A stretch of 59,578 nucleotides of DNA from Escherichia coli (GCF_003334255.1 NZ_QOWU01000030.1), one strand, 5' to 3'; positions 8,093-55,968 are shown, counted from the first letter of the stretch. Made by a program: numbers and translations. The notes: generated by a model not told the origin, from the letters alone.

Positions 8093-8099
8093 AGCCTGG

Positions 8100-8290
<191 letters not shown>

Positions 8291-8297
8291 CTGGTGC

Positions 8298-35862: not shown

Positions 35863-35968
35863 CCTTACATCAAAGCCACTGGTCAGGAGTGAGAACCCTG
35901 ACGGGTGTCATCGGGAAGGTGTAAGATGTCGTGAATGTCTCTCATGCCATCTCATTTTCTCGATTTAA

Positions 35969-38698: not shown

Positions 38699-40199
38699 CC
38701 TTTCCCTCCACCACCTTCTCTGTGCCACTCTCATGCGGGGACGGCGTCTTCTCCGTCGTCCTGCTCTTTTCCTCAGCCAGTTGCTGCATGAGCTCATTGA
38801 GTACCAGCGTCCTGCGTGCCCGGGTAACCGCCACATACAACAGGTTAGTTTCATCCCGGCGCGCCTGTTCTGACATCAGCGGATCAGCGATATCCTGAAA
38901 ATCATCCCCCAGTACAACCCGCACCCATTCCAGTCCCTTACTGCGGTGCGCCGTTGAAACCGTGATATCAGCCTCCCGCTCGTTCGTGACTGTGTGCTCC
39001 CTGAGTAGCTCCAGTTTTTTTGGTAACGGAAAACACAGCTCCAGCAGTCGTATGGACTGATTCATCTCCACATCCTTCGTCACCTTCGCAATATGACGGT
39101 ATTCATCAAAATTCCGGTAATCCCTGCGCAACCGGTCAGAGTGCATCCGGGCCGGCATATCCATCTGGAACCAGTAAAGATCTTCAAGCGCCTCCGTTCG
39201 GTATCCCTCAATGCCCCCGACCCAGTAAACCTTCCTGCCCGCCATTGCTGCCATCAGCGCCGTGCCAATCACTCCGGCGACGGTCCGGTTCAGTACCGCC
39301 CGGTGTCCCCCAAATTTTCCACGCTTCATGCGCTCACGCATTTCCTGCATGGTAAGCACCTCATCATCACCGCCGCAGCCGCTCACCTCTCGACTTTCCC
39401 CTGCGCGTTTCAGCAGCAGATTAGCCATCGCGGCCACTGCGGGGCCAAAACGAAAACTCTGTGTCAGCCAAAGACGGTCGGCACCGGACAGAGACGGATG
39501 AGACAGGGCATCATCCGCGCCACGAAAACGGTAGATCTGCTGATACCGGTCACCGACCAGCACAATCCTGCACCGCTGTCCCAGCACAAGTGCGGAAGTC
39601 ACCGGATTCGCATCCTGCGCTTCATCAAACAGAATGGTGTCCCATCTGCGCGAGAGATCAGGTCCGGAGAGCTGAAACAATTTGAGATAGGTGTCATGGG
39701 TGACCGGAAACGTTCCATCCGGATCGCTCATTGCCTGCCAGAGCGTCCTCACAGCACGAAGTGCCTCATCCGGAGCAACTCCTTTCATTTCGTCCTTGTC
39801 CGGCAGATGCTGCCTGCCGGGGGTTGCATCCGCTGAGCAGATAAACTGATTCAGCCCTGTCATGGCCACCCGGGCCAGTGCCCAGTATCGGGTATTCAGT
39901 TTTCTTGCCACATCGGTGACGAACAAGCCCGGAACAAGCCGCTTCTGGTAATGCCTTCCGAAGCGGGCAAACGCCAGCTGATGCGACGTTTTGCATTCAA
40001 CGTTAAAAGGAAACCTGCGCTCAGCTTCATCACGAATCGCACGATTATAGGCGAGATAGAGCATCCTGCTCTCCGGGCAGGCCATGGCATAGCTGACCAG
40101 TGTGCTGGTTTTCCCTGTACCGGCAAAAGCATTAACAACAAGCTTCCTCCCCTGCCAGTGAATAATTGCCGTCTGTTCTTCTGTCGGTTTATGGGGCAT
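38691..40199 (-). CDS. Compact UvrD/Rep-like superfamily-1 DNA helicase, 502 aa
   Basis: Walker A AFAGTGKTS, motif II ILFDEAQD, motif III VGDRYQQIY, motif V TAHRSKGLEW, motif VI YVAVTRARR; GGAGG SD. Confidence 0.8.
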   Translation of the reverse strand: MPHKPTEEQTAIIHWQGRKLVVNAFAGTGKTSTLVSYAMACPESRMLYLAYNRAIRDEAERRFPFNVECKTSHQLAFARFGRHYQKRLVPGLFVTDVARKLNTRYWALARVAMTGLNQFICSADATPGRQHLPDKDEMKGVAPDEALRAVRTLWQAMSDPDGTFPVTHDTYLKLFQLSGPDLSRRWDTILFDEAQDANPVTSALVLGQRCRIVLVGDRYQQIYRFRGADDALSHPSLSGADRLWLTQSFRFGPAVAAMANLLLKRAGESREVSGCGGDDEVLTMQEMRERMKRGKFGGHRAVLNRTVAGVIGTALMAAMAGRKVYWVGGIEGYRTEALEDLYWFQMDMPARMHSDRLRRDYRNFDEYRHIAKVTKDVEMNQSIRLLELCFPLPKKLELLREHTVTNEREADITVSTAHRSKGLEWVRVVLGDDFQDIADPLMSEQARRDETNLLYVAVTRARRTLVLNELMQQLAEEKSRTTEKTPSPHESGTEKVVEGKDV

Positions 40200-40663
40200 G
40201 GCTTTCCTCCGTAAAGACGAAATTTCCGGTCACTCTGCCTTCAGCCAGGCGACCGTGACCAGCATTAATTTACCCTGGTGACCATAAAATTTTACCTCCC
40301 GTAAATTTTTAGCGACCTGAAAAGAATTAATTATCGCCACCCGGGTATCAGCTGTTCATTATCCCCTCAGACACAGCCCACAACGGGTCTGCTGTATCAC
40401 CGTTCTTCGTAACGGTCATGCTCTTTAACAATCCGGGAGCGGCCACGCCCTGAAGCCGGGCTGAGGAGGAAAACAGATATGCTACGTAGAGAGTGACGTG
40501 CCGCGCCTGCAGCCACAGGTAACACTCCCCAACATCGGACACCGCAAATAATGGCTACACAACCCGAAAACGCACTGAGCGCCAGAACAGTGCGTTTCCG
40601 GTTGTGCCGGAGCCTGCACCCTGCAGAGTCCTGAACAACATCCAGTAAAACCAGGCACTTTCG

Positions 40664-40699
40664 GCGACATCATTTTCCCCATGGTGATGTCGCTTTTTT
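40664..40699 (+). terminator. Strong intrinsic terminator in non-coding region
   Basis: 9-bp stem gcgacatca/tgatgtcgc, 12-nt loop, then tttttt; no ORF of 60 aa or more upstream on this strand. Confidence 0.65.
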
Positions 40700-40736
40700 C
40701 AGCACAGAATAATAATGCACAGCAGGAGTACAGATA

Positions 40737-40967
40737 ATGGCATCAGCACTGGCCACCCCAGCCCCGTATAAATACTGTATTCAGGCCACCATCGAAAAAC
40801 CCGGCGGTACACCGGTTTCATGGATTCGCTTCCAGAATACGCCCATGACGAAACAGGAGTGTGAAAAACTCTTCTCCACTGAAAAAGAAGCCGGTAAATC
40901 TTTCACCGTTAAAGTCGGGGTTACTCAATTTTCATGTAAGGAAAATCCACCTGCACCTGGAGAGTGA
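40737..40967 (+). CDS. Hypothetical small protein, 76 aa
   Basis: AGGAG SD 8 nt upstream of ATG; no recognisable family. Confidence 0.4.
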   Translation: MASALATPAPYKYCIQATIEKPGGTPVSWIRFQNTPMTKQECEKLFSTEKEAGKSFTVKVGVTQFSCKENPPAPGE

Positions 40968-40975
40968 TTTTTATT

Positions 40976-41170
40976 ATGCCTCATCCCATCACATATACAA
41001 ATTTTCTTCCGGTGGTTCTGTTTTTCGTTATCGTTATTTTTATTATCACTTTTATAATAGCCATCACCACGACCATCCCCGCAGATATGACTGTAAGAGG
41101 CTTTTACAATAGATACAGAAAGGATTTTCTGTCTCTTTTTTCGGCATATTTCCTTTCATCAATATTCTGA
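40976..41170 (+). CDS. Hypothetical small hydrophobic protein, about 64 aa
   Basis: Very hydrophobic N-terminal half; ATG at 40976 downstream of GGAGAG. Confidence 0.3.
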   Translation: MPHPITYTNFLPVVLFFVIVIFIITFIIAITTTIPADMTVRGFYNRYRKDFLSLFSAYFLSSIF

Positions 41171-41466
41171 GCATTCTTGGTGACAGGCACCAGTATTTCA
41201 GACAGCACGCCGGTTTTCGGTAGTACACCGGACAATGCGATTACAAACTCGCTGATTTCACTGGCGTTCTGTAATTCGTTATTAACTCACGCATGGATTT
41301 GTGATCTCTGCGACATACACAGAAACAAAAACATCTTTATTTATATAACACTGGCTTTTCTTCATCTTATTTTAATCAATTCATGCACCCATTTTATCTA
41401 CGCCACTTTTTATTAATTCAGTTAACTCCGTCTTAACAGACAGAAATAGTGAAAAAGGTGATACTG

Positions 41467-42138
41467 ATGAATATATTAAGATACTTAAGTATTTCGCTCT
41501 TCGCGTTCTCATTTTCATATACCGCCACAGCCTCCACTCAGATATCATCATCGCACAACCACGCCGAAAAACGTGCAATCGGTACGCTGAAATTTATACG
41601 GGCCGACGGACAACGACCGTTTGGTCAGGCTATGAAACAATTATTACCCACCGGCTGGCGTACTGAGATTGCCCGTGACGTCCGGCTCCCCGCCAGAATA
41701 TCATGGTCCGGAAATGACCAGTGGAACCATGTTATCGAAAAAACGCTGCCCCGCTACAGCCTGAAAGCCACATTTGATACCTCAGGGAAACGCGTACTGA
41801 TCCAGCAGGCGGAAAAAACGGTAAAATCTGGCCTGTTTTCTGCCCCCGTAACCGGTGTCAAAAAAACAGAAACACGTCATATTGAGCAGGGAATGACCCT
41901 GCGTACAGGGCTGGAAAAATGGGCAGCCGCCGAACCTTGCGCTACCGGGAAATGGAAAGTGGCATGGAAAACGCCGGTAAATTACAGTATCGATGCCCGG
42001 TTAGTTTTTTCAGGTAATTTTATGGATGCACTGAACAGTACATTCGCACTTTATCAGCAGGCTGAAAAACCCTTATATGCCTCGGTGAATAAAAACCAGT
42101 GCGTGCTGATAATTACTGACATCCCGGGGGACAGCTAA
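41467..42138 (+). CDS. Pilus-assembly accessory protein (PilL/TcpQ-like, tentative)
   Basis: Signal peptide; first gene of a block co-linear with the R64 thin-pilus operon; ATG 41467 with AGGTG SD (track starts at GTG 41449). Confidence 0.45.
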   Translation: MNILRYLSISLFAFSFSYTATASTQISSSHNHAEKRAIGTLKFIRADGQRPFGQAMKQLLPTGWRTEIARDVRLPARISWSGNDQWNHVIEKTLPRYSLKATFDTSGKRVLIQQAEKTVKSGLFSAPVTGVKKTETRHIEQGMTLRTGLEKWAAAEPCATGKWKVAWKTPVNYSIDARLVFSGNFMDALNSTFALYQQAEKPLYASVNKNQCVLIITDIPGDS

Positions 42139-42573
42139 ATGGGATGGCTCATGCCCCTCATAATGGCACTGTTTATCATCGGGAACTGGTTTCATGCCGG
42201 CAATACGGAGCGGGCAATAAAAAATACTGATGAGCAGCAAAGACAACAACAGGCATATGAAATATTACGCCTGACAAATGCCATTAATGACTGGAAATAT
42301 CATCATCCCGGTGATATCCGTGAAGGAAAGATGCTTACGGTTAACGAAACCGGATTCGCTCCGGTATACGGAACAAAACATATTATTTCAGGGCAAAGAA
42401 CTTTTGTCTGGCTTCCTTTTCAGCCAGGGCTGATATCAGCCCTGAATGAAGTGAGCCGAAACTCAGCATTAATTGCGCAGGTCAGGGACAGAAAGTTACT
42501 GGATAACCAAGGAAATAATATTGGTGTTCCGCCTTCCGTTATACCGGAAAATGCGATCGTCCTGATCAATTAA
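42139..42573 (+). CDS. PilM-like small membrane-associated protein (tentative), 144 aa
   Basis: N-terminal hydrophobic segment; size and position match R64 pilM. Confidence 0.4.
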   Translation: MGWLMPLIMALFIIGNWFHAGNTERAIKNTDEQQRQQQAYEILRLTNAINDWKYHHPGDIREGKMLTVNETGFAPVYGTKHIISGQRTFVWLPFQPGLISALNEVSRNSALIAQVRDRKLLDNQGNNIGVPPSVIPENAIVLIN

Positions 42574-42781
42574 GCATCCCCAAAAGGGGATTCTGCACTG
42601 AGGTCTGCATATCATGTCTTCTCTCAGCAACATGATATATCGCTACGGCGCAGACTTCAGTCCGGAAAATCTTTCTCAGTGTTCATTAACACATGAAATA
42701 CCCGTCGCTCTGTCTCACTGAATTGTTATTTCGTCCCTCCACAGACAGAGAATAAATATTCAACAAGCAGGTATACAGAAT

Positions 42782-44383
42782 ATGAAAAAATTTTTCTGCG
42801 CTGTCACCGCCTTATCCGTTGTTTTATCAGGCTGCAGCAGTTTTGAACGAATCAGTGCCACAGAAAAAAAAGCATCCGATGAGATAACACGGGCTGAACG
42901 TATAGCCGGTGAACTTCGCAAACAACGCGCCGTTGTGCGCGAAACAAACCAGCAGTGGATCAATACCACGCCCCTTCCGGAAAAAACCGTTACCCGGGCA
43001 ATACCGGATTGCCCGGTCGTCATAAACACCCGGGAAGCCATCACACTTCACCAGATTGCACAGCGGATTTCTGAAACCTGTCATATTCCGGTTCAAATCA
43101 TGTCTGATGTCTGGACACTGCTGGGTACCGGAGAAAATCGCACACAGAGGATCAGCGGCGACATTCCCCCGCCTGATACCAGTGGCATGCAGCCACTGAG
43201 CACCGTGGGGCTGTCATCAGCCGCCCCCTCCACGGCCTCACTGCCGGAACTCAATGTTCAGGGGCTGCCCGCTTTGCTTGACACCGTATCTTCACGCTTT
43301 GGGATCACCTGGCGCTATGTGAAGGGAAAAATTGAATTCCACTGGCTTGACACCCGTACATTCCCGGTCACCTACATGGACAGCCAGGTCGCCTACAATG
43401 CCAGAGTCGTCAGTGGCACCATGTCATCCACGGGCAGTTCCGGTGGTTCATCCGGCAGTTCCCTGAGTGGTGATGCCAGCAATACGCAGACAACCGCGGT
43501 TGATATGAAATCCACACTCTATGAAGACACAAAAAATGCCGTGAATTCCATGCTGACGCCCGGTATCGGAAGGATGGTGTTGTCCACCGGCTTTCTGACC
43601 GTAACCGACACACCACAGGTTCTGGATACTGTTAAGAATTTTATGGAAGAACGTAACCGGGAAATGCGCCGTCAGGTTGTGCTGAATATTGAAATCCTGA
43701 GCATCAAAAAAACCAGCAAAGAGCAGGCCGGAATCGACTGGAACGCCGTTTTCAGTGACGGACATCTCGGTATAGACCTGACCAGTGCATTTACTAATGC
43801 CGCCGATGAAGTCGTGACCAGTGGGGTATCGATTATTGACGGTAAGCTCACCGGTTCAAAAGCGTTTCTGAAAGCGCTTTCATCACAGGGTAAAGTCAGT
43901 GTGGTCACCCAAAACTCGGCTGTCACCAAAAACCTGACGCCGGTTCCTATGCAGGTCGCCAACCAGCAGGGGTACATAGAAAGTGTCACCACGGATACGA
44001 CGGCCAATGTGGGCTCCTCCACCTCACTGAATGCGGCAACAATCACCACCGGCTTCAACATGACACTGTTACCGTTTATCCAGCCCGGCTCACACCGGTT
44101 GCAGTTACTGTTCAGCATGAGCCTGTCCGACAAACCTGTTTTTGAAGTGTTTGAAAGCGGTGGCAGTCGGGCCCAGACACCGAGTGTTGAGCTGAAAACC
44201 ATCAACCAGACCATCGACCTGAAATCAGATCAGACTGTGATCCTGAGCGGATTCCAACAGTTCAGCCGGAAATCGCTCAGACAGGGCGTGGGCACCCCGT
44301 CATTCTTCGGACTCGGTGGTGGCGTGGACAGTGCAGATGACGACACCATTCTGGTTGTGCTGATCACACCGCACGTAATCTGA
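42782..44383 (+). CDS. pilN: Secretin-type outer-membrane lipoprotein (PilN-like), 533 aa
   Basis: Lipobox VLSGCSS; Ser/Gly-rich linker; secretin-like C-terminus (…DDDTILVVLITPHVI). Confidence 0.7.
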   Translation: MKKFFCAVTALSVVLSGCSSFERISATEKKASDEITRAERIAGELRKQRAVVRETNQQWINTTPLPEKTVTRAIPDCPVVINTREAITLHQIAQRISETCHIPVQIMSDVWTLLGTGENRTQRISGDIPPPDTSGMQPLSTVGLSSAAPSTASLPELNVQGLPALLDTVSSRFGITWRYVKGKIEFHWLDTRTFPVTYMDSQVAYNARVVSGTMSSTGSSGGSSGSSLSGDASNTQTTAVDMKSTLYEDTKNAVNSMLTPGIGRMVLSTGFLTVTDTPQVLDTVKNFMEERNREMRRQVVLNIEILSIKKTSKEQAGIDWNAVFSDGHLGIDLTSAFTNAADEVVTSGVSIIDGKLTGSKAFLKALSSQGKVSVVTQNSAVTKNLTPVPMQVANQQGYIESVTTDTTANVGSSTSLNAATITTGFNMTLLPFIQPGSHRLQLLFSMSLSDKPVFEVFESGGSRAQTPSVELKTINQTIDLKSDQTVILSGFQQFSRKSLRQGVGTPSFFGLGGGVDSADDDTILVVLITPHVI

Positions 44384-44394
44384 CGGAGGTTCCC

Positions 44395-45693
44395 TTGAAC
44401 GGGTCAATGCAGAAAAAAATTCGTCCAGTGTCACTGATATCGGGTAAACAGGCATTCCTTGCGGGCCTTGACTGGAAAAACATGCCTCCCGGTTACCGGA
44501 ATGCCCGGCGGTTTGCACAGTCACAGGGCGCAGAACTGTATCTTTCCTGCCACAACCACGACGGTGAAAACGGTGATGAAATGATGATTGCCCTGCTCAG
44601 TCGTCAGGATGCAGATATCCCCCGTAACATTCGCCAGTGCCTGTCACTGGCGATGTTAATACGCCCGCTCCTCAAATCAGGTGGGTATGCCATTTTCATC
44701 ATCGAGAACGACGACGCTGAACTCACCTGTGCGTTTGTATCGGTGATTAATGGCATTCTGGTTAACGACGTTACCGGTACCCCGACTGAAATCACGGAAG
44801 CCCGCAACACGTTCCTGATGCTCAATGCGGAACCGGAAAACGGCTGGGTACGCTACGAACCTGACGGTTTTTCACCAGACAGTCGGTGTATCCCGCTACC
44901 GCTGTCAAACCTGATCAGCACCAGAAAGCATCCGGCAGAAGCGCGTCTGCTCCCCGTGTCCAGAGGCCCACAGTTAATGACAGCCTTACTCATCATCACG
45001 CTGCTTGGCGCATCGTGGTACGGCTGGCAACGTTATGAAATCTGGCAGGCGGAAAAAGCGGAACGTGAAGAAAGCGCCCGGAAATCAGCTGAAGCACGTA
45101 TAACGCCACCATGGACGGGGCAGCCTGAGACCGGAGAATTTATCCGGCAATGCAGCACAACATGGAACCAGACGCCACTGTCTGCTGCCGGATGGCGTTA
45201 TACCCTGGCTGAATGTTCTTCTGACGGTAACAGCGGTAATCTGCGGTCTTCATACACCAATACAGCAGGCACGACAGTGACAGCCTTCATCCGGCGCATC
45301 ACTGAACTCACAGACACCCGGCCGTTTATTGTTATGCCTGAAGGGAACTCTGGCGGCGTTGCACTGCCGGTCACATTCCGGCTCCCAGATAATCCTGTCC
45401 CGGTTGATTCCCTTCCGGAAACCCGAGACCTGCAGGAACGACTGACCACGCTCGCACAGTCAGTTCAACTGCAGATTGACTGGCAGGAAGTCAATAACAG
45501 CTTCACTGATGAAAACGGAAACATCATCCAGCCACCGTGGAAAGAGTATGACCTGCAGATACAGACGCTACTCCCAGCTAACCAGCTGGCAGAGCGCTTC
45601 AGCGAGCCATCTGTCCGTTTTCTCTCCGTCACTAGACAACTGGAAAATGGTCGTTTCCGTTATCAGTTCACAGGTAAATATTATGCACGATAA
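44395..45693 (+). CDS. pilO: PilO-like pilus assembly protein, 432 aa
   Basis: Position and size match R64 pilO; TTG start 5 nt after GGAGG (or ATG at 44407); single TM segment. Confidence 0.55.
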   Translation: MNGSMQKKIRPVSLISGKQAFLAGLDWKNMPPGYRNARRFAQSQGAELYLSCHNHDGENGDEMMIALLSRQDADIPRNIRQCLSLAMLIRPLLKSGGYAIFIIENDDAELTCAFVSVINGILVNDVTGTPTEITEARNTFLMLNAEPENGWVRYEPDGFSPDSRCIPLPLSNLISTRKHPAEARLLPVSRGPQLMTALLIITLLGASWYGWQRYEIWQAEKAEREESARKSAEARITPPWTGQPETGEFIRQCSTTWNQTPLSAAGWRYTLAECSSDGNSGNLRSSYTNTAGTTVTAFIRRITELTDTRPFIVMPEGNSGGVALPVTFRLPDNPVPVDSLPETRDLQERLTTLAQSVQLQIDWQEVNNSFTDENGNIIQPPWKEYDLQIQTLLPANQLAERFSEPSVRFLSVTRQLENGRFRYQFTGKYYAR

Positions 45694-46144
45694 AACAAAA
45701 GCGCTGCTGATTGCAGCCCTGCTGTTACCGGCAATGGCGGTGGCCGGCAACGAAAATGACGCGCCGCAGAACAAACAACTGCAGATTGAGCAGATTCAGG
45801 AAGAAACCGCCCTGTATGAAGCGATGCTGGCAAGAGAAAAAATTCGTCATGAATTGCGGACACTGGAACAGGGTATCTCCCCGGTTTCCGGTTCTGTCAC
45901 GGGACATCAGCCGGAAAATGCGGCTGGCACCTCCTCCGGTTCACAGGCATTATCATCCCCCCGTCTGAAAGAAATCTTTGGTATTCAGCCACAGCTTTCA
46001 GCACGCGTCATACTCCCCGGAGGAACTGAAACTGATGTCAGGGCCGGACAGGCATTACCCGGCACGCTGTTCATGGTGGAACAAATCACACCGGAAAGTG
46101 TGATTCTGGAATACAACGGCAACAAGCAGACGCTACGCCCGTGA
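45683..46144 (+). CDS. pilP: PilP-like periplasmic protein, 153 aa
   Basis: Start MHDKTKALLIAALLLPAMAVA overlapping pilO stop by 11 nt; track ORF over-extended. Confidence 0.55.
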   Translation: MHDKTKALLIAALLLPAMAVAGNENDAPQNKQLQIEQIQEETALYEAMLAREKIRHELRTLEQGISPVSGSVTGHQPENAAGTSSGSQALSSPRLKEIFGIQPQLSARVILPGGTETDVRAGQALPGTLFMVEQITPESVILEYNGNKQTLRP

Positions 46145-46153
46145 GGTGCCATC

Positions 46154-47674
46154 ATGCCAGAGACTATCGTACTGCCTCCTGAAGATATTCGTGATTTCGT
46201 CGCAATTCAGCATGACGCTGACGGAAAAATCAGGGTGAAAGTCGTCGAAGCGAAGAAGCACATCACCTCTGTACAACGTTACCTGACGCTCTTACGCTCC
46301 CGCTATCCGGAAAAAATCAGCAAATTCGATTTTACCACTCTTGACGTTATCGCAGCCCTGAACAGCAATAATACGGAACGTGCACCGGGCGTTTTATCCG
46401 ACGGAGGGATCAACACAGTACAAAGAAAAGTTCTTGATTACATCAGAAAAGCCGCTCAACTGAATGCCTCAGATCTGCATATCACACCAGGACGCGACAA
46501 CACGGACTTCACCTATGTGGAAGCCCGGGTTCACGGCGAACTGGAAGTGCTCGATATCCTCCGGAAAGAAGAAGGCCTCGAATTACTGGGGGCCACCTAT
46601 TCCGGCATGACCGACGTCATCAAGGGCACACAGTTTGATCCCGGGGTGCCTCAGGATGCGCGTCTTTCAGAACAGTACCTGAAACTGGCAGGTCTGTTTG
46701 GTGCACGCTACTCCCACTACCCCTGTGTGGGCGGTCTCTATGCCGTGCTCCGGCTGATCAAGGATGACAGCCAGCAAATCCCGACCTTCAGTATGCTGGG
46801 CTACCACCCTGAGCAGGAGCGCACCCTGCGACGTATTCTGCAACGTCCTGAAGGCATTATCACACTCTCAGGCCCCACCGGCTCAGGAAAATCCACCACG
46901 CTGAGAACCGCCTCTGCGGCATACCTTGAACAGTACGGCTTCAACAACACCGGCGGTATTCTTCTTCCCCGTCGCAGGCTGTTCACCATTGAATCCCCAC
47001 CGGAAGGGCGTATTCCCGGTGCCATTCAGACCGCCGTCATGGATACCGCGCAGGGCTGGGTGGACTCCATCAAATCAGCGTTGCGTCTTGATCCTGACGG
47101 GATCCTGAACGGTGAAATCCGCGACCACGATTCCGCTATTACGGCGATAAAAGCCGCCATGACCGGGCATCTGATGCTGACCACCATCCATGCGAACGAC
47201 CCGATTAATATCCTCGAACGCCTTGAGATGGAAGGCGTTCAGACTAGGATGATCGCCGACCCACAGTTGTTCATCGGCCTGCTGAGCCAGCGTCTGGTTC
47301 AGCTGATATGTCCGCACTGCCGTCGCCCCTGGCATGAGGTGGCCACCGGACGCACGGATGATGAACGGCACCTAGTGGAAGGCTTCTGTAACCCGGACCA
47401 GGTGTATCTGAGAAATCATGAAGGCTGCCCACACTGCTGGCGTGGCGTGACGGGGCGAACGGTTATCGCAGAAGTCATCTCCCCGGATGCCCGTTTTTTC
47501 CAGTTGTACCGGGAAAAGGGCCGTATTGAGGCTAAAACCTACTGGCACAGAGAACTGGGCGGAATGACCCGAAATCAGCATCTCCAGGGAAAAATCAACA
47601 GCGGACAGGTTGATCCGCTAGCGGCCCATTACATCTCTCCCATCGACGAGGACAGCTATACGCTGTTGCACTGA
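46154..47674 (+). CDS. pilQ: Type IV pilus assembly ATPase (GspE/PilB family), 506 aa
   Basis: Walker A LSGPTGSGKSTTL, Asp box, His box (TIHANDP), tetracysteine motif (CPHC…CPHC). Confidence 0.85.
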   Translation: MPETIVLPPEDIRDFVAIQHDADGKIRVKVVEAKKHITSVQRYLTLLRSRYPEKISKFDFTTLDVIAALNSNNTERAPGVLSDGGINTVQRKVLDYIRKAAQLNASDLHITPGRDNTDFTYVEARVHGELEVLDILRKEEGLELLGATYSGMTDVIKGTQFDPGVPQDARLSEQYLKLAGLFGARYSHYPCVGGLYAVLRLIKDDSQQIPTFSMLGYHPEQERTLRRILQRPEGIITLSGPTGSGKSTTLRTASAAYLEQYGFNNTGGILLPRRRLFTIESPPEGRIPGAIQTAVMDTAQGWVDSIKSALRLDPDGILNGEIRDHDSAITAIKAAMTGHLMLTTIHANDPINILERLEMEGVQTRMIADPQLFIGLLSQRLVQLICPHCRRPWHEVATGRTDDERHLVEGFCNPDQVYLRNHEGCPHCWRGVTGRTVIAEVISPDARFFQLYREKGRIEAKTYWHRELGGMTRNQHLQGKINSGQVDPLAAHYISPIDEDSYTLLH

Positions 47675-47675
47675 C

Positions 47676-48776
47676 ATGAGATTTCTGGAAAAACTCAACA
47701 ACACCGACATTGAGCTGACAGCACTGACCGTCTGGATAGCCAGAAAAATCTTTGCCCTGAACCGGGTGGAGTTCTACGAATCCCTGGGCGGCATGATACG
47801 TGACGGGACCCCGTCACTGCGTGCACTCGAATTTCTCTGCAATGTCGAAACTGACTTCGGAACCCGGAAAGGGACATCAGGCATGTATTTTCTGGCGAAG
47901 GAATGCATCGCGTCCATTAAATCCAGCGGCATGTTATCCGGTGCTCTGCCCACCTGGGTGCCGCCGGAAGAAGCCACGCTCATTCGGAACGGGGAAGAGC
48001 GCGGGAATATTGCCGACGCGCTTTTCCAGGTGGCCAGAACCGTTAAGGCACGGCGGGAAATGACATCCAGCCTCATTGCCGTCTGCCTCTACCCCCTTCT
48101 GCTGCTTTCGCTCTGTGTGGTGAATATGTACAACGCCCATACCCGTATTGTCCCCATCGTCAGTGCGTTTGCTGCAGAAGATAAATGGTCATTCCAGATG
48201 AAAGTGCTGGCTGGCATGTCGGAGTTTTTCATCGGGTACGGATTCTGGCTCTGCGGGGCCAGTTTCACCCTGACTGTTCTGATCCGTTTTTCATTCAGCC
48301 GGTATACCGGCCCCGGCAGGAGGATGCTGGACAGGATTCCCCCCTGGTCACTGTATCAGACCTTACACGGGGTGAATTATCTGTTCAGTATTTCATCCAT
48401 GTTGCAGATCAATATTCCTCTTTCGCAGGCGCTGCTCCGAATGGAAAAAGGGGCAGAAAATAATAAATGGTTAAAGGAGAGAATTCAGGCAATAAGAAAA
48501 CATGTATTATCCGGTCAGAATCTGGCCACGGCAATGCGAAATTCCGGTTACGATTTCCCGTCCAGAATATGTATCAATAAACTGCTCCTGAATTCCGAAA
48601 GGGAGGACAGTGTGGCAGCCATGGCGCTCTATGCCGATCAGTGGCTGGAGGAAGCAAAAAAACGGGTAAAACGAATTGGATTAATTATTACCGGTATATC
48701 AGGAGGTTTTGTCTTCTTTTTTATTCTTAACATGATATCTGCCATCTACAGTATCAGCGACATGCTGAAGCAATAA
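47676..48776 (+). CDS. pilR: Type IV pilus inner-membrane platform protein (GspF/PilC family), 366 aa
   Basis: Polytopic membrane protein directly after the ATPase, 1-nt gap. Confidence 0.75.
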   Translation: MRFLEKLNNTDIELTALTVWIARKIFALNRVEFYESLGGMIRDGTPSLRALEFLCNVETDFGTRKGTSGMYFLAKECIASIKSSGMLSGALPTWVPPEEATLIRNGEERGNIADALFQVARTVKARREMTSSLIAVCLYPLLLLSLCVVNMYNAHTRIVPIVSAFAAEDKWSFQMKVLAGMSEFFIGYGFWLCGASFTLTVLIRFSFSRYTGPGRRMLDRIPPWSLYQTLHGVNYLFSISSMLQINIPLSQALLRMEKGAENNKWLKERIQAIRKHVLSGQNLATAMRNSGYDFPSRICINKLLLNSEREDSVAAMALYADQWLEEAKKRVKRIGLIITGISGGFVFFFILNMISAIYSISDMLKQ

Positions 48777-48827
48777 TCCCCGCCATACAGAATATTTCTT
48801 AAATATCCCATACACCAGGAGTGACAT

Positions 48828-49364
48828 ATGAACTTCAGAGCACGTATTTTTTATTACTTTTCTTTAAAAAAAGAGAAAGAGGAGGATAAAGGTTTAACAT
48901 TACTGGAAATTGCCGGCGCACTAATTATCATCGGTATTGTGGTTGCTCTCGCAATGAGTCAGATGTCCAGCACAATGGCATCCAGTGACAACCAGCGAGA
49001 ACTGAAAAACCTGCAGACCATTGCAACCAAAATGAAGCAGTACAAGTTCCAGGGCAGATATACCGGCACGGATTATATCAAAACCCTGACGGAAAGCGGA
49101 TCCCTGCCGGCTGATATGATTGCCGGAGGCAACAAAGCCAAAAACGCATGGGGAGGCGATGTCACCATTGCAACAACAAGTAATAAATACGGTTATATTA
49201 TAACCAGCAAAGCCGTGCCAAAAGAAAACTGTGTTGAACTGATTAACAGCCTGCGCAGTTCATCCATGTTCACAAAAATCAAAGGCCAGACACCTGCCAG
49301 TGTGGATCCGGTAACTGTATGTTCTGCCGCCACAAACGATATAACGCTCGAAACCAGCAGTTAA
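48828..49364 (+). CDS. pilS: Type IVb major prepilin, 178 aa
   Basis: Long leader then …KGLTLLEIAGALIIIGIVVALA (pilin processing motif, Glu+5); AGGAG SD. Confidence 0.75.
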   Translation: MNFRARIFYYFSLKKEKEEDKGLTLLEIAGALIIIGIVVALAMSQMSSTMASSDNQRELKNLQTIATKMKQYKFQGRYTGTDYIKTLTESGSLPADMIAGGNKAKNAWGGDVTIATTSNKYGYIITSKAVPKENCVELINSLRSSSMFTKIKGQTPASVDPVTVCSAATNDITLETSS

Positions 49365-49376
49365 TATCCTGACACA

Positions 49377-49399
49377 GCGCCCCCCCCGGGGCGCTTTTT
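49377..49399 (+). terminator. Intra-operon intrinsic terminator after major pilin gene
   Basis: gcgcccc/ggggcgc stem, cccc loop, ttttt tail, 13 nt after pilS stop. Confidence 0.6.
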
Positions 49400-49414
49400 C
49401 CGGAGCACATCCGC

Positions 49415-49897
49415 ATGAAATGGTTATTTCTTTCTGTCGTGATTTTTCCGTTATCTTTCACCCTTCCGGCTGAAGCTACCGCCACAAACACATTACTGGA
49501 CAGTTGCTTTATTCAGGCCGGGAAACGCTATCTGATTGCCCCTGAGCTTCTTAAAACCATTGCACAGCAGGAAAGCAGCCTGGTCGCCACCGCGATAAAT
49601 CACAATAAAAACAAATCCGGAAAAATCATCAGTACGGATTACGGGATTATGCAGATTAATTCAGTACATATTCCTGAGCTGAAAAAACTGGGGGTCATTA
49701 AAGATAAAAATGAACTGCTTAATAATCCCTGCCTGAATATTCAGACCGGTGCCTGGATACTGGCCCGCCATTTTCAACGCTGCGGCGTTAACTGGGAATG
49801 CCTTGGCAGCTATAACGCCGGATTCAGCAAAAATAACACAGCCCGGCGCATGATATATGCCCGAAAAATCCACAACCGGTATTTCAGAAAAGATTAA
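49415..49897 (+). CDS. pilT: Soluble lytic transglycosylase-domain protein, 160 aa
   Basis: Signal peptide; SLT motifs (…IAQQESSL…, …YGIMQINSVH…). Confidence 0.8.
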   Translation: MKWLFLSVVIFPLSFTLPAEATATNTLLDSCFIQAGKRYLIAPELLKTIAQQESSLVATAINHNKNKSGKIISTDYGIMQINSVHIPELKKLGVIKDKNELLNNPCLNIQTGAWILARHFQRCGVNWECLGSYNAGFSKNNTARRMIYARKIHNRYFRKD

Positions 49898-49907
49898 TTA
49901 ATACGAG

Positions 49908-50564
49908 GTGACGGTGAGCGCATTACTGAGCATGGCAATAATAATCATCATCCTGGCGGTTATTCTTTATCTTGCATACAGCACCGCCGCCATCTATCTG
50001 TCAGCAGTACACGACACCCGGCCACCAAAGCCGGTGGTGTACATATGTTGTCTTCTGGCCATAGTGAGTGTCAGTCTCAACGGCGCATATGGTGTTGAGG
50101 CCACGGGGCTGTTATTCCTTTCCATTCTGACGGGATTATTAACTGTAATGACGCTGACGGATATTGCTGTCTGTCGGCTTCCCCGGATATTCACGCTTTC
50201 TCTTATTATTCTGGGCGCAGCGTTCAGATACAGCCAGGACTCACTGACTCATGCCCTGCTCAACGCGTCACTGTGGTTCGGCATGATATACCTGTTACGA
50301 CGCATTTTTCTGGCAGCGAAAGGGACGGAAGCGCTCGGCCTTGGTGATGTGTTCCTGATTGCGGGGATCGCAATGTGGACGCAACCGCAACACACTCCAC
50401 TGATAATCACCGCCGCAGCCTCCGGAGCATTTCTGTTTATCCTCATTTTCTGCCGTCGCAGATGCCAGTTAGCGCTGCCGTTTGCCCCGTTTCTCTGCGC
50501 GTCCCTGTATGTGCTGACCCTCTTCCCTGATTCCGTTATCCACACATCGGAGATATTCACGTGA
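49908..50564 (+). CDS. pilU: Prepilin peptidase (A24 family), 218 aa
   Basis: Polytopic membrane protein with LGLGDVFLIAG motif; start codon uncertain (GTG 49908 / GTG 49914 / ATG 49932). Confidence 0.7.
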   Translation: MTVSALLSMAIIIIILAVILYLAYSTAAIYLSAVHDTRPPKPVVYICCLLAIVSVSLNGAYGVEATGLLFLSILTGLLTVMTLTDIAVCRLPRIFTLSLIILGAAFRYSQDSLTHALLNASLWFGMIYLLRRIFLAAKGTEALGLGDVFLIAGIAMWTQPQHTPLIITAAASGAFLFILIFCRRRCQLALPFAPFLCASLYVLTLFPDSVIHTSEIFT

Positions 50565-51850
50565 AAAAATTCAGACACGATGACGATAAAGGTTTTATTC
50601 TGCTTGAGGTTCTGGCGGGACTGATAGTGATTGGTATTGCCACACCAATGATTTATTCAGAAATTGAAGACTGGCTGAATGAACAACTTTATCAAAGTGC
50701 GGCTTTACATGCTGATGAATATAATAATGCAATAAAAAATTATGTGGCTGATAAAACCAGCTCACTCTCCAGTAAAACTATCACGGTAAATGAATTAATT
50801 CAGCAGGGATATCTGAACAACGGTTTTTCCCGCTCCCCCTTTGGACAAAGCTATATTACCGGTATCAGAAAAAATAATTTATCCGGTCGTCTGGAAGCAC
50901 TTACCTGCACAACCGGAGGACAGGATATTAAAGAAGATGGGTTACGTCGCATAGCGGGCCAGATTAATGGACTCGGTGGTTTTATGCTCCAGAATAATTC
51001 CGTTACAGGTTCCTTTGGCGGCTGGACCGATCTGGGAAGTAATTATCAGATTACCTGCAACAAGGGGCATATCGCCATGCGAATGGCAGGAAAAGATCTG
51101 GAGGAAAGCGATCGGCTGTACCGCTACAGCGTTCCGGGAAGACCCGATTTAAACAGAATGCATACTGGCATTGATATGAATAATAACAGCATCACCAATA
51201 TCAATGAAGCCAGTGGTAAAAACGCCAGATTTTCAGGCGATGTCACATCAAATCGTTGGTTACATCCAAATGGTGGCGGCTTCACCATGACGGACAGCCA
51301 GTGGATACGTGCTGTTAACAACAAAGGGATCACAACCGAAGGAGAGCTCAAAGGAGGAAAAGTCAGTGGTGGAACTGTCCGGTCTGAGGGGCGTCTTTCC
51401 ACGGGTGAGTATTTACAGCTGGATAAAACAGCTACTGCAGACACTTTCTGCTCACCAGACGGACTTGTAGGCCGCGACAGCAAAGGAGCAATACTTTCGT
51501 GCCAATCCGGTGCCTGGCGAACGATTGGTGCGCCTGACGGAAGTTACAGCAATTTGGGTTCTCACAGGGGAACATTTAACGGGAGAAATAACGGCAGAGG
51601 AACTTTGTTTGTGTACGCTTCCGGTGGAAATAGTGCCGGTGGCGGTGATTGCGCCAACACATCAAATCTTCAGGGCTATGTGAACGGCGCTTTCATTGGT
51701 ATGAATGCCAGCAATAACCCCTCCTACGGAAAGACGGCATTTATTTCATTTGCCGTGCCAGTGGGAGCGTCATATCAAATCATCTCCAGACCAACACAAA
51801 ATTACGCCTGTGGTAACGGTGTTTTCTCTTTGTATGCCTATCAGATGTGA
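50561..51850 (+). CDS. pilV: Minor pilin/adhesin PilV with shufflon-encoded C-terminus (current isoform), 429 aa
   Basis: Prepilin N-terminus …KGFILLEVLAGLIVIG; GTG start overlapping pilU stop; sfx repeat in frame as S-C-Q-S-G-A-W at 51499-51517. Confidence 0.75.
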   Translation: MKKFRHDDDKGFILLEVLAGLIVIGIATPMIYSEIEDWLNEQLYQSAALHADEYNNAIKNYVADKTSSLSSKTITVNELIQQGYLNNGFSRSPFGQSYITGIRKNNLSGRLEALTCTTGGQDIKEDGLRRIAGQINGLGGFMLQNNSVTGSFGGWTDLGSNYQITCNKGHIAMRMAGKDLEESDRLYRYSVPGRPDLNRMHTGIDMNNNSITNINEASGKNARFSGDVTSNRWLHPNGGGFTMTDSQWIRAVNNKGITTEGELKGGKVSGGTVRSEGRLSTGEYLQLDKTATADTFCSPDGLVGRDSKGAILSCQSGAWRTIGAPDGSYSNLGSHRGTFNGRNNGRGTLFVYASGGNSAGGGDCANTSNLQGYVNGAFIGMNASNNPSYGKTAFISFAVPVGASYQIISRPTQNYACGNGVFSLYAYQM

Positions 51851-52822
51851 GTCCCTAGCTGGCTTTAACAATGTAGTTAAATGCAATGTTTTTGGGACGC
51901 ATTTCTGTGGTACTCCCCTGTGCCCAGTATGGCATACCACTATGATGCCCTTTCAGCCATCCGCCACGTTCGTGATAGACGCCTGATTGATCGGCCTGAT
52001 AACTCAGGAGCTGTCTGTTCTGATCACCATCAAGTCCCTTCCCGTTATCCCAGCCACGGATAAAAACACCGCGCAGATCGGGCAATTTACAGCCAGGATA
52101 AGCACGGGCAAGCTGAGGATACCGGGAACAGGAAAACGACTGGCCGTCCATCAACAGATAGCCTTGTGGAGGAGTGGCAGATGGCCACGGGATAGGGCTT
52201 CCCACAGGGTAGGATTCAAAGCCACCCCACACACCGGATTGGCACTGGCCTCCGTGCCAATCCGGTTCGTGGAAAAATGCAGGAAAAGGCGATATTGAAA
52301 TCGTCAAAGTAACAGCATCAAAACTCCGCTGGCCTGGTGCTACTGCCACCTGCCCAATGGGTAAGAAGGTGATCGGGGGTGGTGCAGAATGCAGCTCTGG
52401 AATTGGCTTTATCTGGCTTGTCCGTTCAATACCTGTAAACAATAATGCCTGGTATGGCTATTGCGATACGACAGAACACATCATTGGAAAAATAACTGTA
52501 CATGCCATTTGCCAATGACAAAGTGATTTACTGGCAAACCACAATGTAACTACATTTCCCCGTCAGGTCGTTCCTGTTTGTACCGCCGTGAAAATTGTAT
52601 TCATCGTAGTAACCACACTTCACAATCCTGTTCGAATCATATGTCGCAACAGAACCTGCGAAGTAATTTGGCTTCCAGCCATGCGGGTTCTCAGCATTGC
52701 TGACGCTCCAGGTACACTGGCTGGCAGAAAAACCAGACGGCAAAGGTAGTCGTTCTCCATTCGCGATTTTTCCTGTCAGAACAGTGCTACCTGATACCCT
52801 AATCCACGAACCGGATTGGCAC
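51499..52822. other. Shufflon: two invertible segments bounded by four 19-bp sfx repeats, four alternative pilV 3' exons
   Basis: sfx1 51499-51517 gtgccaatccggtgcctgg (+); sfx2 52227-52245 (-, rc gtgccaatccggtgtgtgg); sfx3 52254-52272 gtgccaatccggttcgtgg (+); sfx4 52804-52822 (-); open frames continue in-frame from each repeat: A 51518-51850 (+), A' 51855-52226 (-), B 52273-52518 (+), B' 52528-52803 (-). Confidence 0.8.
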
Positions 52823-52884
52823 GGCGATATTGCATTTCCGTTTCACTATTCCTACCTTCCCCGTTTTTATCGTGGAAGGCCGAT

Positions 52885-54054
52885 ATGTTTCGAAAAATCA
52901 AAATTCGCAAAATGACTCTCAACCGGGCGCTGGACAAATACCTGAAAACCGTTTCCGTCCATAAAAAAGGTCATCTGCAGGAGTTTTATCGCGTCAATGT
53001 GATTAAACGTCACCCTATGGCCGATCGCTATATGGATGAAATCACGACCGTTGATATCGCCGGTTACCGGGATCAGCGTTTGGCTCAAATTAACCCACGA
53101 ACAGGGCGTCAAATCACCGGAAATACCGTCCGTCTTGAACTTGCCCTTTTATCATCATTATTCAATATCGCCCGTGTGGAATGGGGAACATGCCGTATGA
53201 ATCCTGTTGAACTGGTCCGAAAACCGAAAATCAGTAATGGCCGCGACCGCCGACTGACTTCTGGTGAAGAACGCCGCCTTTCCCGCTATTTCAGGGACAA
53301 AAATCCGCAGCTCTACGTTATCTTCCATCTGGCTCTGGAAACAGCAATGCGCCAGGGAGAAATTCTCTCATTACGCTGGGAACACCTCGATTTGCAGCAC
53401 GGCGTGGCGCATCTTCCTGAAACGAAAAATGGCTCACCACGCGACGTACCACTCTCCCGGAAAGCACGTAACTACCTGCAAATTCTGCCACAACAGATAA
53501 ACGGCAATGTGTTCAGTTACACCTCGTCCGGTTTCAAAAGCGCCTGGCGTACCGCTCTTCTGGATCTGAAAATAGAAAATCTGCATTTTCACGATCTCCG
53601 CCATGAGGCCATCAGCCGTCTGTTCGAGCTCGGCACACTGAACGTTATGGAGATTGCAGCCATTTCCGGTCACCGCTCCCTGAACATGTTGAAACGGTAC
53701 ACACATCTCCGGGCATATCACCTGGTCAGTAAACTCGATGCAAGGCGTAAACAGACCAGCAAAATTTCCCCTTATTTTGTTCCCTACCCAGCAACTGTCA
53801 GAAACAGAAACGGAGTGTTCATTGTGACACTGCACGATTTCGACCTTGAAAGCCGTGCTGACACCCGGGAACTGGCAATATCTCACGCCAGCGTATTGTT
53901 GCTGCGCGCACTGGCCCAGGCTGCTCAGCGGGGTGAACGCGTCCCCACACCAGGCGAGCTACCCGCAAACATTGATGAACGGGTCATGATTTGTCCGTTA
54001 ACAAACAGCCAGTTCATGACAAAAGCGAACAGTATTTTCATATCCTCCTCCTGA
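52885..54054 (+). CDS. rci: Shufflon-specific tyrosine recombinase (Rci-like), 389 aa
   Basis: Motifs [10 protein letters not shown] and [13 protein letters not shown]; GGAAGG SD; immediately downstream of sfx4. Confidence 0.8.
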
Positions 54055-54083
54055 ACAAATAATTTTTGTTCAAAATTAACGCT

Positions 54084-54386
54084 ATGAGACCCTTTATGAA
54101 ACACTTATCCTCCCGTGCAGCCACTGCGGATAATAATCGTATCGTTACAATTGAAGACGTTTACACAATCGCATTCTCGCAACCAATTCACACCGAATCA
54201 GCGTTGGGGCAAAGGTGGATGTTGATCCATACTGGTGAATATGAAAGTGCCAGCGATGCAAAACGCTTCCTTGATACGCTCGTCACCGGGCACTGTGCTT
54301 GCATGGTAACACCATCACCTGTTCTGGATCATGACACCTGGCTGCGTATCCGCCTGCTGATGGGCGAGATAAGGGATGCCAAATAA
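54084..54386 (+). CDS. Hypothetical protein, about 100 aa
   Basis: ORF only; start uncertain (TTG 54066 or ATG 54084). Confidence 0.35.
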   Translation: MRPFMKHLSSRAATADNNRIVTIEDVYTIAFSQPIHTESALGQRWMLIHTGEYESASDAKRFLDTLVTGHCACMVTPSPVLDHDTWLRIRLLMGEIRDAK

Positions 54387-54477
54387 ACATTCATGGCCCC
54401 AACGCATAAAAATAACGACGGGGACTCTGGCAGTGGTACCATTCTTTTTACATAGAGCCAATATATAAACAACTTTT

Positions 54478-54798
54478 CTATGATAATATCTTTATCATGT
54501 TATAAATAATTGTCCCCTCAGCAGAAAGGGCCCAAATAGAAAAAGCAAAAATCCTTATAAAAATATTCTTTACAAGCGTTCCTATATACAAACAAACTAT
54601 ATAAACCAGCCAGAACAGAATGACTGCAAAAGAAACACACACGGCCCCCATAAAAATAAATGTCATCGAATCCCATGGTTTCACCAGTACAACCGGAACC
54701 ATGGCTGCCAGAACAATAAGAGCAGCATTACCCAACAGCGTCTCTCGAATAATATCCCTTATAATCTCCAGTTTTTCTTTATGCTGTTTAATTTTCAT
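54478..54798 (-). CDS. Hypothetical small membrane protein, 106 aa
   Basis: Two predicted TM helices; in an AT-rich stretch. Confidence 0.4.
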   Translation of the reverse strand: MKIKQHKEKLEIIRDIIRETLLGNAALIVLAAMVPVVLVKPWDSMTFIFMGAVCVSFAVILFWLVYIVCLYIGTLVKNIFIRIFAFSIWALSAEGTIIYNMIKILS

Positions 54799-55057
54799 AT
54801 GAACCTCATTGATTTCATCCCGAAAAGGAAAAGATTATATAACGAAATACTTTCAATCTCCTGACTCCGTCTGCTCTGCAGCATAATGCCAGACCAGCGG
54901 CATGCTAAATCACGTCCTGTCCGAATCCTTTTCATTCACGCTTAAAACAGAGTTAAAAGCACTCTTGAAACACACTCGATCATAACGATCGAAATAACTC
55001 GTTTCCGTTCAGTAAACACGCTCTTTAGACTTAACATATGAACCGCACGGAGGTGAA

Positions 55058-55879
55058 ATGAAACCCAACAGCACAGGCATTGCTGCCCGCATGATGCTCT
55101 CCATTGACAGGGTCCGGATTTGCGAAGCTCTGCTCAATAACCGCCAGTTGCAGTCCACTCCTCTGCAGATCCGTTATCCGCAGGGTGTCAGAGAAGCACT
55201 CGGAATAATGAGCGAGCAACTCTCCCTTTCTGTATCCGACCTGACGCGTATCCTGGTCGAAGATGCATTAACTGAAATGTTTCTCCCGGCTGAAAACATC
55301 GTTCACCGTCTTATCTGCCGGACAGAACACATCATGCAGGCACATGATGTCTGCGTAACAACGATGACAACGTTACTGGCTCCCTGGAATATCCGTCCTG
55401 CCGTTTTCCGTGACCCGGACAAACTCGCAGATTATCTGACAGGAGAGATTCTGACTGCTCTGGCTGACTGGTTTTATCTCAACCCGGAATGGCTGAACGG
55501 CAGGGTACGTTATCCTTTAAGCCGTGCCGGTGAGTGGCCAGCAACACAGGATGCGTTCTGCCAGCTTATTTCAGCCAGCGATAATGTGGATATTATTATC
55601 TGGCACAGTTTTCCTTTTGCCGGTGTTCATTCACAGGAATATTGCGGTGTACTGTTCCGCAAGAAAAAAGAAATTAATAAAGCCATCATTTATCCTGTAC
55701 TTTCTTTATCACCTGTAAGAATGAATAAGGAAAAAGAAAACTGGTTTCACACTGCCCGCAATTTATATGCAAAGACATCCGTCCGGACCGTAACGCTTCG
55801 TCCGGCACAGGCAGAATATCTGATGATAGGAAAAATATTACCTGCTGAGTTATTCAGTATACCGTTATTACCCTGGTAA
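55058..55879 (+). CDS. Hypothetical protein, 273 aa
   Basis: GGAGG SD 7 nt upstream; no recognisable catalytic motif. Confidence 0.5.
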   Translation: MKPNSTGIAARMMLSIDRVRICEALLNNRQLQSTPLQIRYPQGVREALGIMSEQLSLSVSDLTRILVEDALTEMFLPAENIVHRLICRTEHIMQAHDVCVTTMTTLLAPWNIRPAVFRDPDKLADYLTGEILTALADWFYLNPEWLNGRVRYPLSRAGEWPATQDAFCQLISASDNVDIIIWHSFPFAGVHSQEYCGVLFRKKKEINKAIIYPVLSLSPVRMNKEKENWFHTARNLYAKTSVRTVTLRPAQAEYLMIGKILPAELFSIPLLPW

Positions 55880-55968
55880 TAACGCAGAGAAAAAACCAGT
55901 AAATTTTTAATGGCACAGTCGTGTCATACCGTTGCTGTACCCAAAACACCTCAAACCAGGAAACTGAA

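Follow-up and report, generated by a model that had tools for sequence, protein, structure and literature searches.

How does a pilus operon come to stand on a bacterial chromosome with no conjugation system in view, and what does it serve? The question is raised by a stretch of Escherichia coli DNA (GCF_003334255.1, NZ_QOWU01000030.1), whose whole length of 59,578 nucleotides is called the window here, and in which eleven plus-strand open reading frames (ORFs) at 41467-51850, read without internal stops, make up a pilL-pilV series. A preliminary description had taken this series for a complete R64-type thin-pilus (type IVb) operon on the chromosome, with no conjugative type IV secretion system (T4SS) visible, that might serve a co-resident integrative and conjugative element (ICE) or plasmid or act as an adhesin. 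With a probability of roughly 0.85, we conclude that an ICE of the ICEEc2/ICEEc8 type is inserted at the 3' end of pheV and that the pil genes form its type IVb pilus module, which stabilises mating pairs. This type of ICE belongs to the SPI-7/PAPI-1/pKLC102 lineage, which has a MobH relaxase and a T4SS of mating-pair formation class G (MPF-G). Our conclusion rests on the attachment (att) repeat, integrase and relaxase in the window, on a layout matching those of ICEEc8 and of an element in avian pathogenic E. coli (APEC), on a near-identical complete copy of the element, and on the co-occurrence of the pil genes with the T4SS.

To the 5' side of the pil operon the window holds the following features; the protein profiles were searched in NCBIfam, with its curated cut-offs, and then in Pfam.

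35787-35862, plus strand: tRNA-Phe gene (pheV), 3' of speC-yqgA, found with ARAGORN; the sole tRNA gene of the window.
35812-35863: attL, a direct repeat of 52 bp at the 3' end of pheV, matching the published ICEEc8 repeat exactly.
36062-37057, minus strand: tyrosine integrase, XerC/D-like (NCBIfam XerA/XerD/XerC-type; Pfam Phage_integrase).
37100-38698 (longest ORF to 38854), minus strand: TraI relaxase of the MobH/PFGI-1 class (TIGR03760, 177 bits against a cut-off of 161; MobH NF041494; Pfam TraI_2 and TraI_2_C).
38691-40199, minus strand: UvrD-like helicase, co-oriented with traI (Pfam UvrD-helicase and UvrD_C), equivalent to ORF3 of ICEEc8.
40737-40967, plus strand: DUF1187 gene (Pfam DUF1187), found at the same position in strains SCU-106 and APEC E19035.

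The 52-bp repeat is present in the window as this one exact copy (35812-35863). The tRNA-Phe/att site is about 5.6 kb 5' of the pil operon, and attL, the integrase and the MobH relaxase all fall within 3-6 kb of it on that side. The integrase locus corresponds to RefSeq WP_000777206.1 in strains STEC2018-553 and 2015C-3121, and the same protein is the best match of ORF1 of ICEEc8. The proposed chromosomal location is confirmed by the speA-metK-galP...speC-yqgA-pheV backbone that flanks the element. That no conjugative T4SS is visible holds for the genes of the mating channel, but a conjugative relaxase, an integrase and a tRNA-Phe att site are in the window. The suggestion that the pilus merely serves a co-resident ICE or plasmid has to be given up, since the operon sits inside an ICE, and the window also holds attL, the integrase and the MobH relaxase of that element.

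Some observations concern the relaxase and the region behind it. Near 37119, at the 3' end of traI, there is a 1-nt indel between the window and STEC2018-553, and the TraI C-terminus of the latter is altered. The traI ORF of the window (532 aa) has the length of those in 2015C-3121 and ICEEc8, and the relaxase of the window copy, judged from its sequence, looks like the intact form. A hairpin with a 12-bp stem, followed by a T-run, is found at 40663-40694 between the helicase/relaxase operon and the DUF1187 gene, and 40200-40736 is a candidate for the ICE origin of transfer (oriT) or for a divergent promoter region. An AT-rich leader of 0.5 kb separates the DUF1187 gene from the pil operon.

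The remainder of the element can be followed in STEC2018-553. In 23.7 kb, the length of the ICE part of the window (35863-59568), 7 positions differ from that genome (99.97% identity), and the element of STEC2018-553 stretches from pheV across some 92 kb to another copy of the 52-bp repeat (attR) beside parA, which lies beyond the span of the window and was seen only in that genome. The element carries the full TIGR037xx "integrating conjugative element" T4SS set (MPF-G), together with a conjugative ATPase, TraG, TraD, topoisomerase III, Ssb, ParA and ParB and, in the RefSeq annotation, a SPI-7-type DnaB (dnaB-PI) and proteins of the STY4528 and STY4534 families. In this copy about 27 kb separate the right end of the window from the first T4SS genes; the T4SS, the coupling protein and the SPI-7-type replication and partition genes occupy the stretch about 27-70 kb on, and iha is found inside the T4SS region. 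The pil block was found (at least 80% coverage) in 18 of 5,426 complete E. coli genomes, and the T4SS (at least 95% identity) likewise in 18; the pil-positive genomes listed by name, 15 of the 18, are all in the T4SS list as well (15/15).

Both ends of the window bear on the question of why the T4SS is out of view. Nucleotides 1-78 are the terminal 78 nt of an insertion sequence (IS), IS1, and STEC2018-553 has an IS1 copy about 0.2 kb past the position of the right end (window stretch 59568-59578). The window thus has the appearance of an entire contig from a draft assembly, with IS copies at its borders, and the T4SS is most likely out of view because the contig probably broke at IS1 repeats. 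The same ends might also be read as those of an ICE truncated at IS1 elements, in which the T4SS is absent and the pilus is a true orphan, its operon a remnant; the left end does stand in IS1, the right end falls about 0.2 kb short of the STEC2018-553 copy, and IS1 has already cut traF in 2015C-3121. We regard such a truncation as very improbable, however, because the T4SS is present in every complete genome checked that has the pil block (15 named), the ICE part is nearly identical to a complete copy, and contigs usually end at IS copies in short-read assemblies. It is highly probable that the pil operon is part of a conjugation system, being one module inside an ICE with a T4SS of its own.

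It is also evident that the element is far less diverged than the chromosome beside it. The chromosomal flank (7210-35786) shows 98.5-99.1% identity with STEC2018-553, compared with 99.97% for the ICE part, so the same ICE is found in different E. coli lineages, which fits recent horizontal spread. In 2015C-3121 the same element (99.9% identity) is located at pheU instead of pheV. As to the backbone itself, a D-glucosaminate (dga) phosphotransferase system (PTS) island between loiP and speB and an IS621 insertion next to yggR, both present in STEC2018-553, are missing in the window (8092-8298 and about 19486, respectively).

Several points weigh against the conclusion that this is the pilus module of a working ICE. 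ICEEc8 was itself defined in silico only (PMC6455142), and the related ICEKp2 excises but its transfer is inefficient (PMC6761156). The T4SS lies outside the window, and we infer its presence in the source genome from near-identical complete genomes. Some copies are in decay, as in 2015C-3121, which has a frameshift in pilR and a traF interrupted by IS1. Finally, consensus scans of 40100-57400 gave 16 promoter sites where 20 were expected from shuffled sequence and 19 terminators where 17.5 were expected, no excess in either case; both scans are uninformative, and the boundaries of the operon cannot be drawn from results no better than those of shuffled sequence.

The pil genes themselves are as follows.

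41467-42138, plus strand: pilL, a short form with a Sec signal and TcpQ only (Pfam TcpQ, 2.3e-16; 26% identity to the C-terminal part of R64 PilL).
42163-42573, plus strand: pilM (Pfam PilM, PF07419; 31% identity to R64 PilM).
42782-44383, plus strand: pilN, lipoprotein secretin (TIGR02520, 409 bits against a cut-off of 288; lipobox LSGC; 39% identity to R64 PilN).
44407-45693, plus strand: pilO (Pfam PAP_PilO, 1.9e-35).
45683-46144, plus strand: pilP (TIGR03021, 100 bits against a cut-off of 35).
46154-47674, plus strand: pilQ, assembly ATPase (GspE/PilB-type matches; Walker A GPTGSGKST), with a mosaic breakpoint within it at about 46465-46510.
47676-48776, plus strand: pilR, platform protein (GspF family/type match).
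48828-49364, plus strand: pilS, major type IVb prepilin (Pfam PilS_N; leader ...EDKG/LTLLE, Glu at +5).
49415-49897, plus strand: pilT, lytic transglycosylase (Pfam SLT; 60% identity to R64 PilT).
49914-50564, plus strand: pilU, prepilin peptidase (Pfam Peptidase_A24; GLGD motif).
50561-51850, plus strand: pilV, tip adhesin (Pfam Shufflon_N, 1.8e-51; 41% identity to R64 PilV), now fused to cassette A and 429 aa long.

With eleven unbroken ORFs, a secretin of the PilN family and matches to Pfam and TIGR profiles, the view of the locus as an intact R64-type (type IVb) pilus operon is confirmed, and so is its gene order, pilL-pilV being collinear with R64 with reciprocal matches. Profile searches, which could have pointed to a different secretion system family, placed the proteins in the PilN/R64-type family (TIGR02520, TIGR03021, Pfam); TIGR02520 is the equivalog profile of the PilN-family type IVB secretin in NCBIfam. 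PilL, PilM, PilO, PilU, PilV, TraE and the small ORFs had no NCBIfam match, and Pfam resolved most of them. On inspection of the sequence, a prepilin leader that ends in Gly, with Glu at +5, is found in both PilS and PilV. The genes had been said to abut or overlap throughout; this is correct for junctions ranging from an 11-nt overlap to a 51-nt gap, but pilM and pilN are separated by a spacer of 208 nt. Nor does the unit end at 51850, as had been supposed, since the shufflon (51499-52822), rci (52885-54054) and traE/traF (55058-57171) follow.

These further features of the block are:

51499-52822: shufflon, with four 19-bp sfx sites, two invertible segments and four in-frame PilV C-termini.
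52885-54054, plus strand: rci, shufflon recombinase (75% identity to R64 Rci; Pfam Phage_integrase).
55058-55879, plus strand: traE homologue (57% identity to R64 TraE).
55969-57171, plus strand: traF homologue (74% identity to R64 TraF; Pfam TraF_2, 1.4e-68).

The sfx sites are located at 51499(+), 52227(-), 52254(+) and 52804(-) and have the consensus GTGCCAATCCGGTNNNTGG. The pattern gives 4 matches in the window, with 0 expected by chance, and it finds exactly 7 sites in R64. The four in-frame C-termini yield PilV proteins of 429 aa (A, the current form), 442 aa (A'), 400 aa (B) and 410 aa (B'). In STEC2018-553 PilV is annotated as the A' form (442 aa), and compared with that strain the window has both segments in the opposite orientation at the same place, with 99.9-100% identity. 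In 2015C-3121 two sfx sites are left, one segment is lost, a loss consistent with Rci-mediated deletion, and PilV has 410 aa, which is the length of B'. Three near-identical copies of the element (window, STEC2018-553, 2015C-3121) therefore have three different PilV tails. As segment states differ between near-identical copies, the shufflon is most likely active and still switching.

Cassette A' (51518-52226, minus strand, leftward from sfx 52227) encodes a Phage Tail Collar domain (PF07484, E = 3e-13), and RefSeq labels such shufflon cassettes "phage tail protein"; the match suggests that PilV tips and phage receptor-binding proteins may have modules in common. TraF is a PorV/TraF_2-like outer-membrane protein. 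The traE/traF pair, which forms the end of the block common to the ICE and to I-complex plasmids, is linked to pil-shufflon-rci in MPF-I plasmids and MPF-G ICEs alike, which hints that TraE and TraF may work with the pilus module rather than with a Dot/Icm-type T4SS.

If the pil genes act as the pilus module of the ICE, the prepilins PilS and PilV would be cleaved by PilU, and the PilQ ATPase and the PilR platform would polymerise PilS through the PilN secretin, with PilL, PilM, PilO and PilP as accessory proteins and with PilT opening the murein layer. PilV would be carried at the tip, where Rci, by inverting or deleting the two segments at the four sfx sites, would leave each cell with one of four C-termini, and the tail variants would probably recognise different recipient surfaces. 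The receptor in the case of R64 is lipopolysaccharide (LPS). In liquid or in the gut, the pilus would keep the donor joined to the recipient, while DNA nicked by TraI would pass through the T4SS that the ICE encodes farther along. That the pili are made and needed for transfer, and what kind of receptor they bind, would follow by analogy with R64, ICEEc2 and PAPI-1. The preliminary suggestion of a part in liquid mating or adhesion agrees with the role expected from these relatives, but not as a service to a separate element.

Adhesion could also be the principal role. The pilus might act mainly as an adhesin for host cells or other surfaces, or as a biofilm or auto-aggregation factor, of Shiga toxin-producing E. 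coli (STEC), with conjugation secondary or lost; precedents have been proposed in the pili encoded by SPI-7 (S. Typhi) and YAPI (Y. pseudotuberculosis). Such a role could suit an element that occurs in human STEC isolates with the virulence cargo sigA and iha (ICEEc8), and surfaces of many kinds could be bound by variable PilV tails, one of which has a phage tail collar domain. The pil locus of YAPI was first described as contributing to pathogenicity, but the effect on virulence was later ascribed to other cargo (PMC4458695). The pil operon is, however, strictly linked to integrase, relaxase and T4SS across genomes, and roles in adhesion and conjugation are not mutually exclusive. We thus hold it to be rather unlikely that adhesion is the main function, and find adhesion to host or abiotic surfaces plausible as a secondary role beside mating-pair stabilisation.

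The history of the operon is not that of the ICE alone. When 72,556 plasmids were searched with megablast, matches covered only 46465-54400, at 91-94% identity, and the top matches were IncK2/Z plasmids. Nucleotide identity with these plasmids is 72-74% for the 3' part of pilN through pilP, 88% for pilQ (from 46465) through pilV, 97-99% for the shufflon cassettes, 86% for rci and 91-93% for traE/traF; pilL and pilM had no DNA-level match in any plasmid of the collection. Within pilQ, at 46450-46510, identity to the K. pneumoniae plasmid pC rises from about 50%, which means effectively unalignable sequence on the 5' side, to 100%, and continues at 85-98%. The first 100 or so codons of pilQ and everything 5' of them thus represent another lineage than the rest of the operon. 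At the protein level, the 90% cluster of PilN is confined to E. coli, its next relatives being PilN proteins of I-complex plasmids with 67-69% identity, and a scan of one genome per species with PilN as single-protein query matched no relative.

The sharp breakpoint in pilQ, together with the plasmid-like 3' part, makes the operon a mosaic: by these comparisons it belongs to the I-complex pilus family as a lineage resident in ICEs, and recombination with plasmids has affected its 3' part. The block could instead be taken for a passive fragment of an I-complex (IncB/O/K/Z) plasmid, cargo or debris as far as the ICE is concerned and at most of help to co-resident I-complex plasmids, given that 46465-57171 is collinear with IncK2/Z plasmids at 88-98% identity, including the traE/traF of plasmid transfer regions, that the breakpoint within pilQ is so sharp, and that plasmids of this kind are also present in several of these STEC strains (2013C-3033 with NZ_CP027324.1, for example). 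Yet 11/11 pil genes and rci are intact here, the architecture is kept in diverged ICE lineages (ICEEc8-like, SCU-106, APEC ICEEc2-like), the stretch from pilL to the 5' end of pilQ is at most 74% identical to plasmids at the nucleotide level, with the nearest outside PilN at 67-69%, and the shufflon appears to be still switching. A 5' part that lacks a close plasmid counterpart argues for an ICE-resident lineage that underwent gene conversion and not for a recent insertion of debris, and we find it improbable that the block is a plasmid fragment.

Other origins were considered as well. A copy of the IncI1/R64 operon in the chromosome was rejected, given protein identities to R64 of 24-60% and IncK2/Z plasmids as the nearest ones; an integrated plasmid was likewise rejected, as the flanks consist of ICE genes, with no plasmid replication or MPF-I genes. 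A SPI-7 origin of the 5' half was considered too; outside its own E. coli cluster, the PilN of the element has its nearest relatives in I-complex plasmid proteins (67-69% identity).

The sharp breakpoint in pilQ (about 46465) and shufflon cassettes with 98-99% identity to those of plasmids lead us to suggest, tentatively, that pil-shufflon-rci-traE-traF is an exchangeable module that may still be gene-converting with co-resident I-complex (IncB/O/K/Z, MPF-I) plasmids, a possibility rather than an expectation. If this were true, ICEs and plasmids would draw on one pool of PilV adhesin cassettes, the mating pili of the ICE and of plasmids might cross-complement, and traE/traF would be marked as genes of the pilus module and not of the Dot/Icm-type T4SS.

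Several consequences follow from the ICE context of the pil genes. The annotation is corrected: what passed for a thin pilus on the chromosome with no T4SS is the end in view of an element that is probably self-transmissible, and the case illustrates that modules of an ICE can seem to be orphans when contigs break at IS copies. By way of pheV and pheU, the element would move virulence cargo (sigA, iha) among STEC, APEC and commensal E. coli, and by analogy with its relatives the pilus with its switching PilV tip probably sets the recipient range of the ICE in liquid or in the gut. Descriptions of the element and of its type exist already, as do RefSeq annotations; mildly new are only the strain-to-strain shufflon states and the mosaic exchange with IncK2/Z plasmids, whose relation to the pilus genes here is a modest but real pointer to the exchange of modules between plasmids and ICEs. 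In the window, cargo next to traF is degraded (57338-58357): a 315-bp 3' fragment of an autotransporter gene (57338-57652) is followed by frameshifted higA and higB pseudogenes, the autotransporter fragment occupying the place of an intact sigA in SCU-106 and ICEEc8. An IS3 fragment is found near 59406-59560.

Of the described systems with which we compared the element, ICEEc8 is an 86.5-kb ICE at pheV of STEC without the enterocyte effacement locus (LEE), serotypes O117:H7 / O91:H14 (Montero et al. 2019, PMC6455142). Its supplementary tables (Table S7) list pheV, the 52-bp direct repeat, an integrase, an "ICE relaxase, PFGI-1 class", a helicase, PilM-PilV, the shufflon recombinase, TraE, TraF and SigA (PMC6455142). 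The window agrees with it in the pheV insertion, in the identical 52-bp repeat and in the gene order, including a PilL-like ORF; in the two sequences compared by hand, the PilO C-terminus is identical and PilP about 97% identical. Unlike ICEEc8, the window retains only a 315-bp 3' fragment of sigA (57338-57652) and carries different cargo (a type III restriction-modification (R-M) system and higBA pseudogenes), and the shufflon content differs, PilV of the published copy having 405 aa.

ICEEc2 of the APEC strain BEN374 (Roche et al. 2010) is similarly an ICE of the pKLC102/PAGI-2 family at a phe tRNA gene, and its pilus is reported to act in mating-pair formation and transfer. The element at pheU of APEC E19035 has the layout int-traI-uvrD-DUF1187-pilL..V-shufflon-rci-traE-traF, followed by an autotransporter fragment, higBA and a type III R-M system, and we infer that it is of the ICEEc2 type. 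In comparison with this APEC type, identity is about 91% for pilN-pilV of the window, only about 83% at the nucleotide level for the T4SS and about 75% for traI and uvrD; the integrase region does not align.

R64 (IncI1) shares with the window a collinear pilL-pilV, a PilN-family secretin, a type IVb prepilin, a PilV with the Shufflon_N constant region, and an identical sfx consensus, GTGCCAATCCGGTNNNTGG, followed by an Rci of 75% identity and then by traE and traF. The preliminary description of a complete R64-type operon therefore stands for pilL-pilV, but the Pil proteins are only 24-60% identical to those of R64 and pilI, pilJ and pilK are absent, no match to R64 PilI, PilJ or PilK being found among the proteins tested from the window. 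Moreover, PilL is short, 223 aa with the TcpQ domain only and no lipobox in its sequence, as against a lipoprotein of 355 aa in R64, whose N-terminal lipoprotein domain it lacks. In STEC2018-553 a gene of its own for a "PilL N-terminal domain" protein opens the T4SS cluster, PilL of the pil operon having TcpQ only, and R64 PilL may be a fusion of two proteins that are encoded separately in the ICE. The shufflon of R64 has 4 segments and 7 sfx sites, compared with 2 segments and 4 sfx sites here, and R64 is a plasmid with a MOBP relaxase and a class I (MPF-I, Dot/Icm-like) T4SS, in contrast to a chromosomal ICE with MobH and MPF-G.

The closest plasmid relatives are the IncK2/Z plasmids (such as pMS1170_1 and K. 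pneumoniae pC), with which 46465-57171 is collinear at 88-98% nucleotide identity. Unlike the window, they have pilI, a PilL of 356 aa, 6-8 sfx sites and, between pilP and pilQ, two additional ORFs, and they continue into Dot/Icm-like traH-traJ genes. The pil2 cluster of PAPI-1 (P. aeruginosa) and the pil cluster of SPI-7 (S. Typhi), both compared by description only, are type IVb clusters of the same ICE lineage as the pil genes of the window. SPI-7 has a single invertible segment, with its pil genes placed elsewhere in the element, and PAPI-1 is not known to have a shufflon. Unlike the element described here, PAPI-1 integrates at tRNA-Lys; it is transferred via its type IVb pilus, and its PilV2 binds the LPS of the recipient (PMC5297154).

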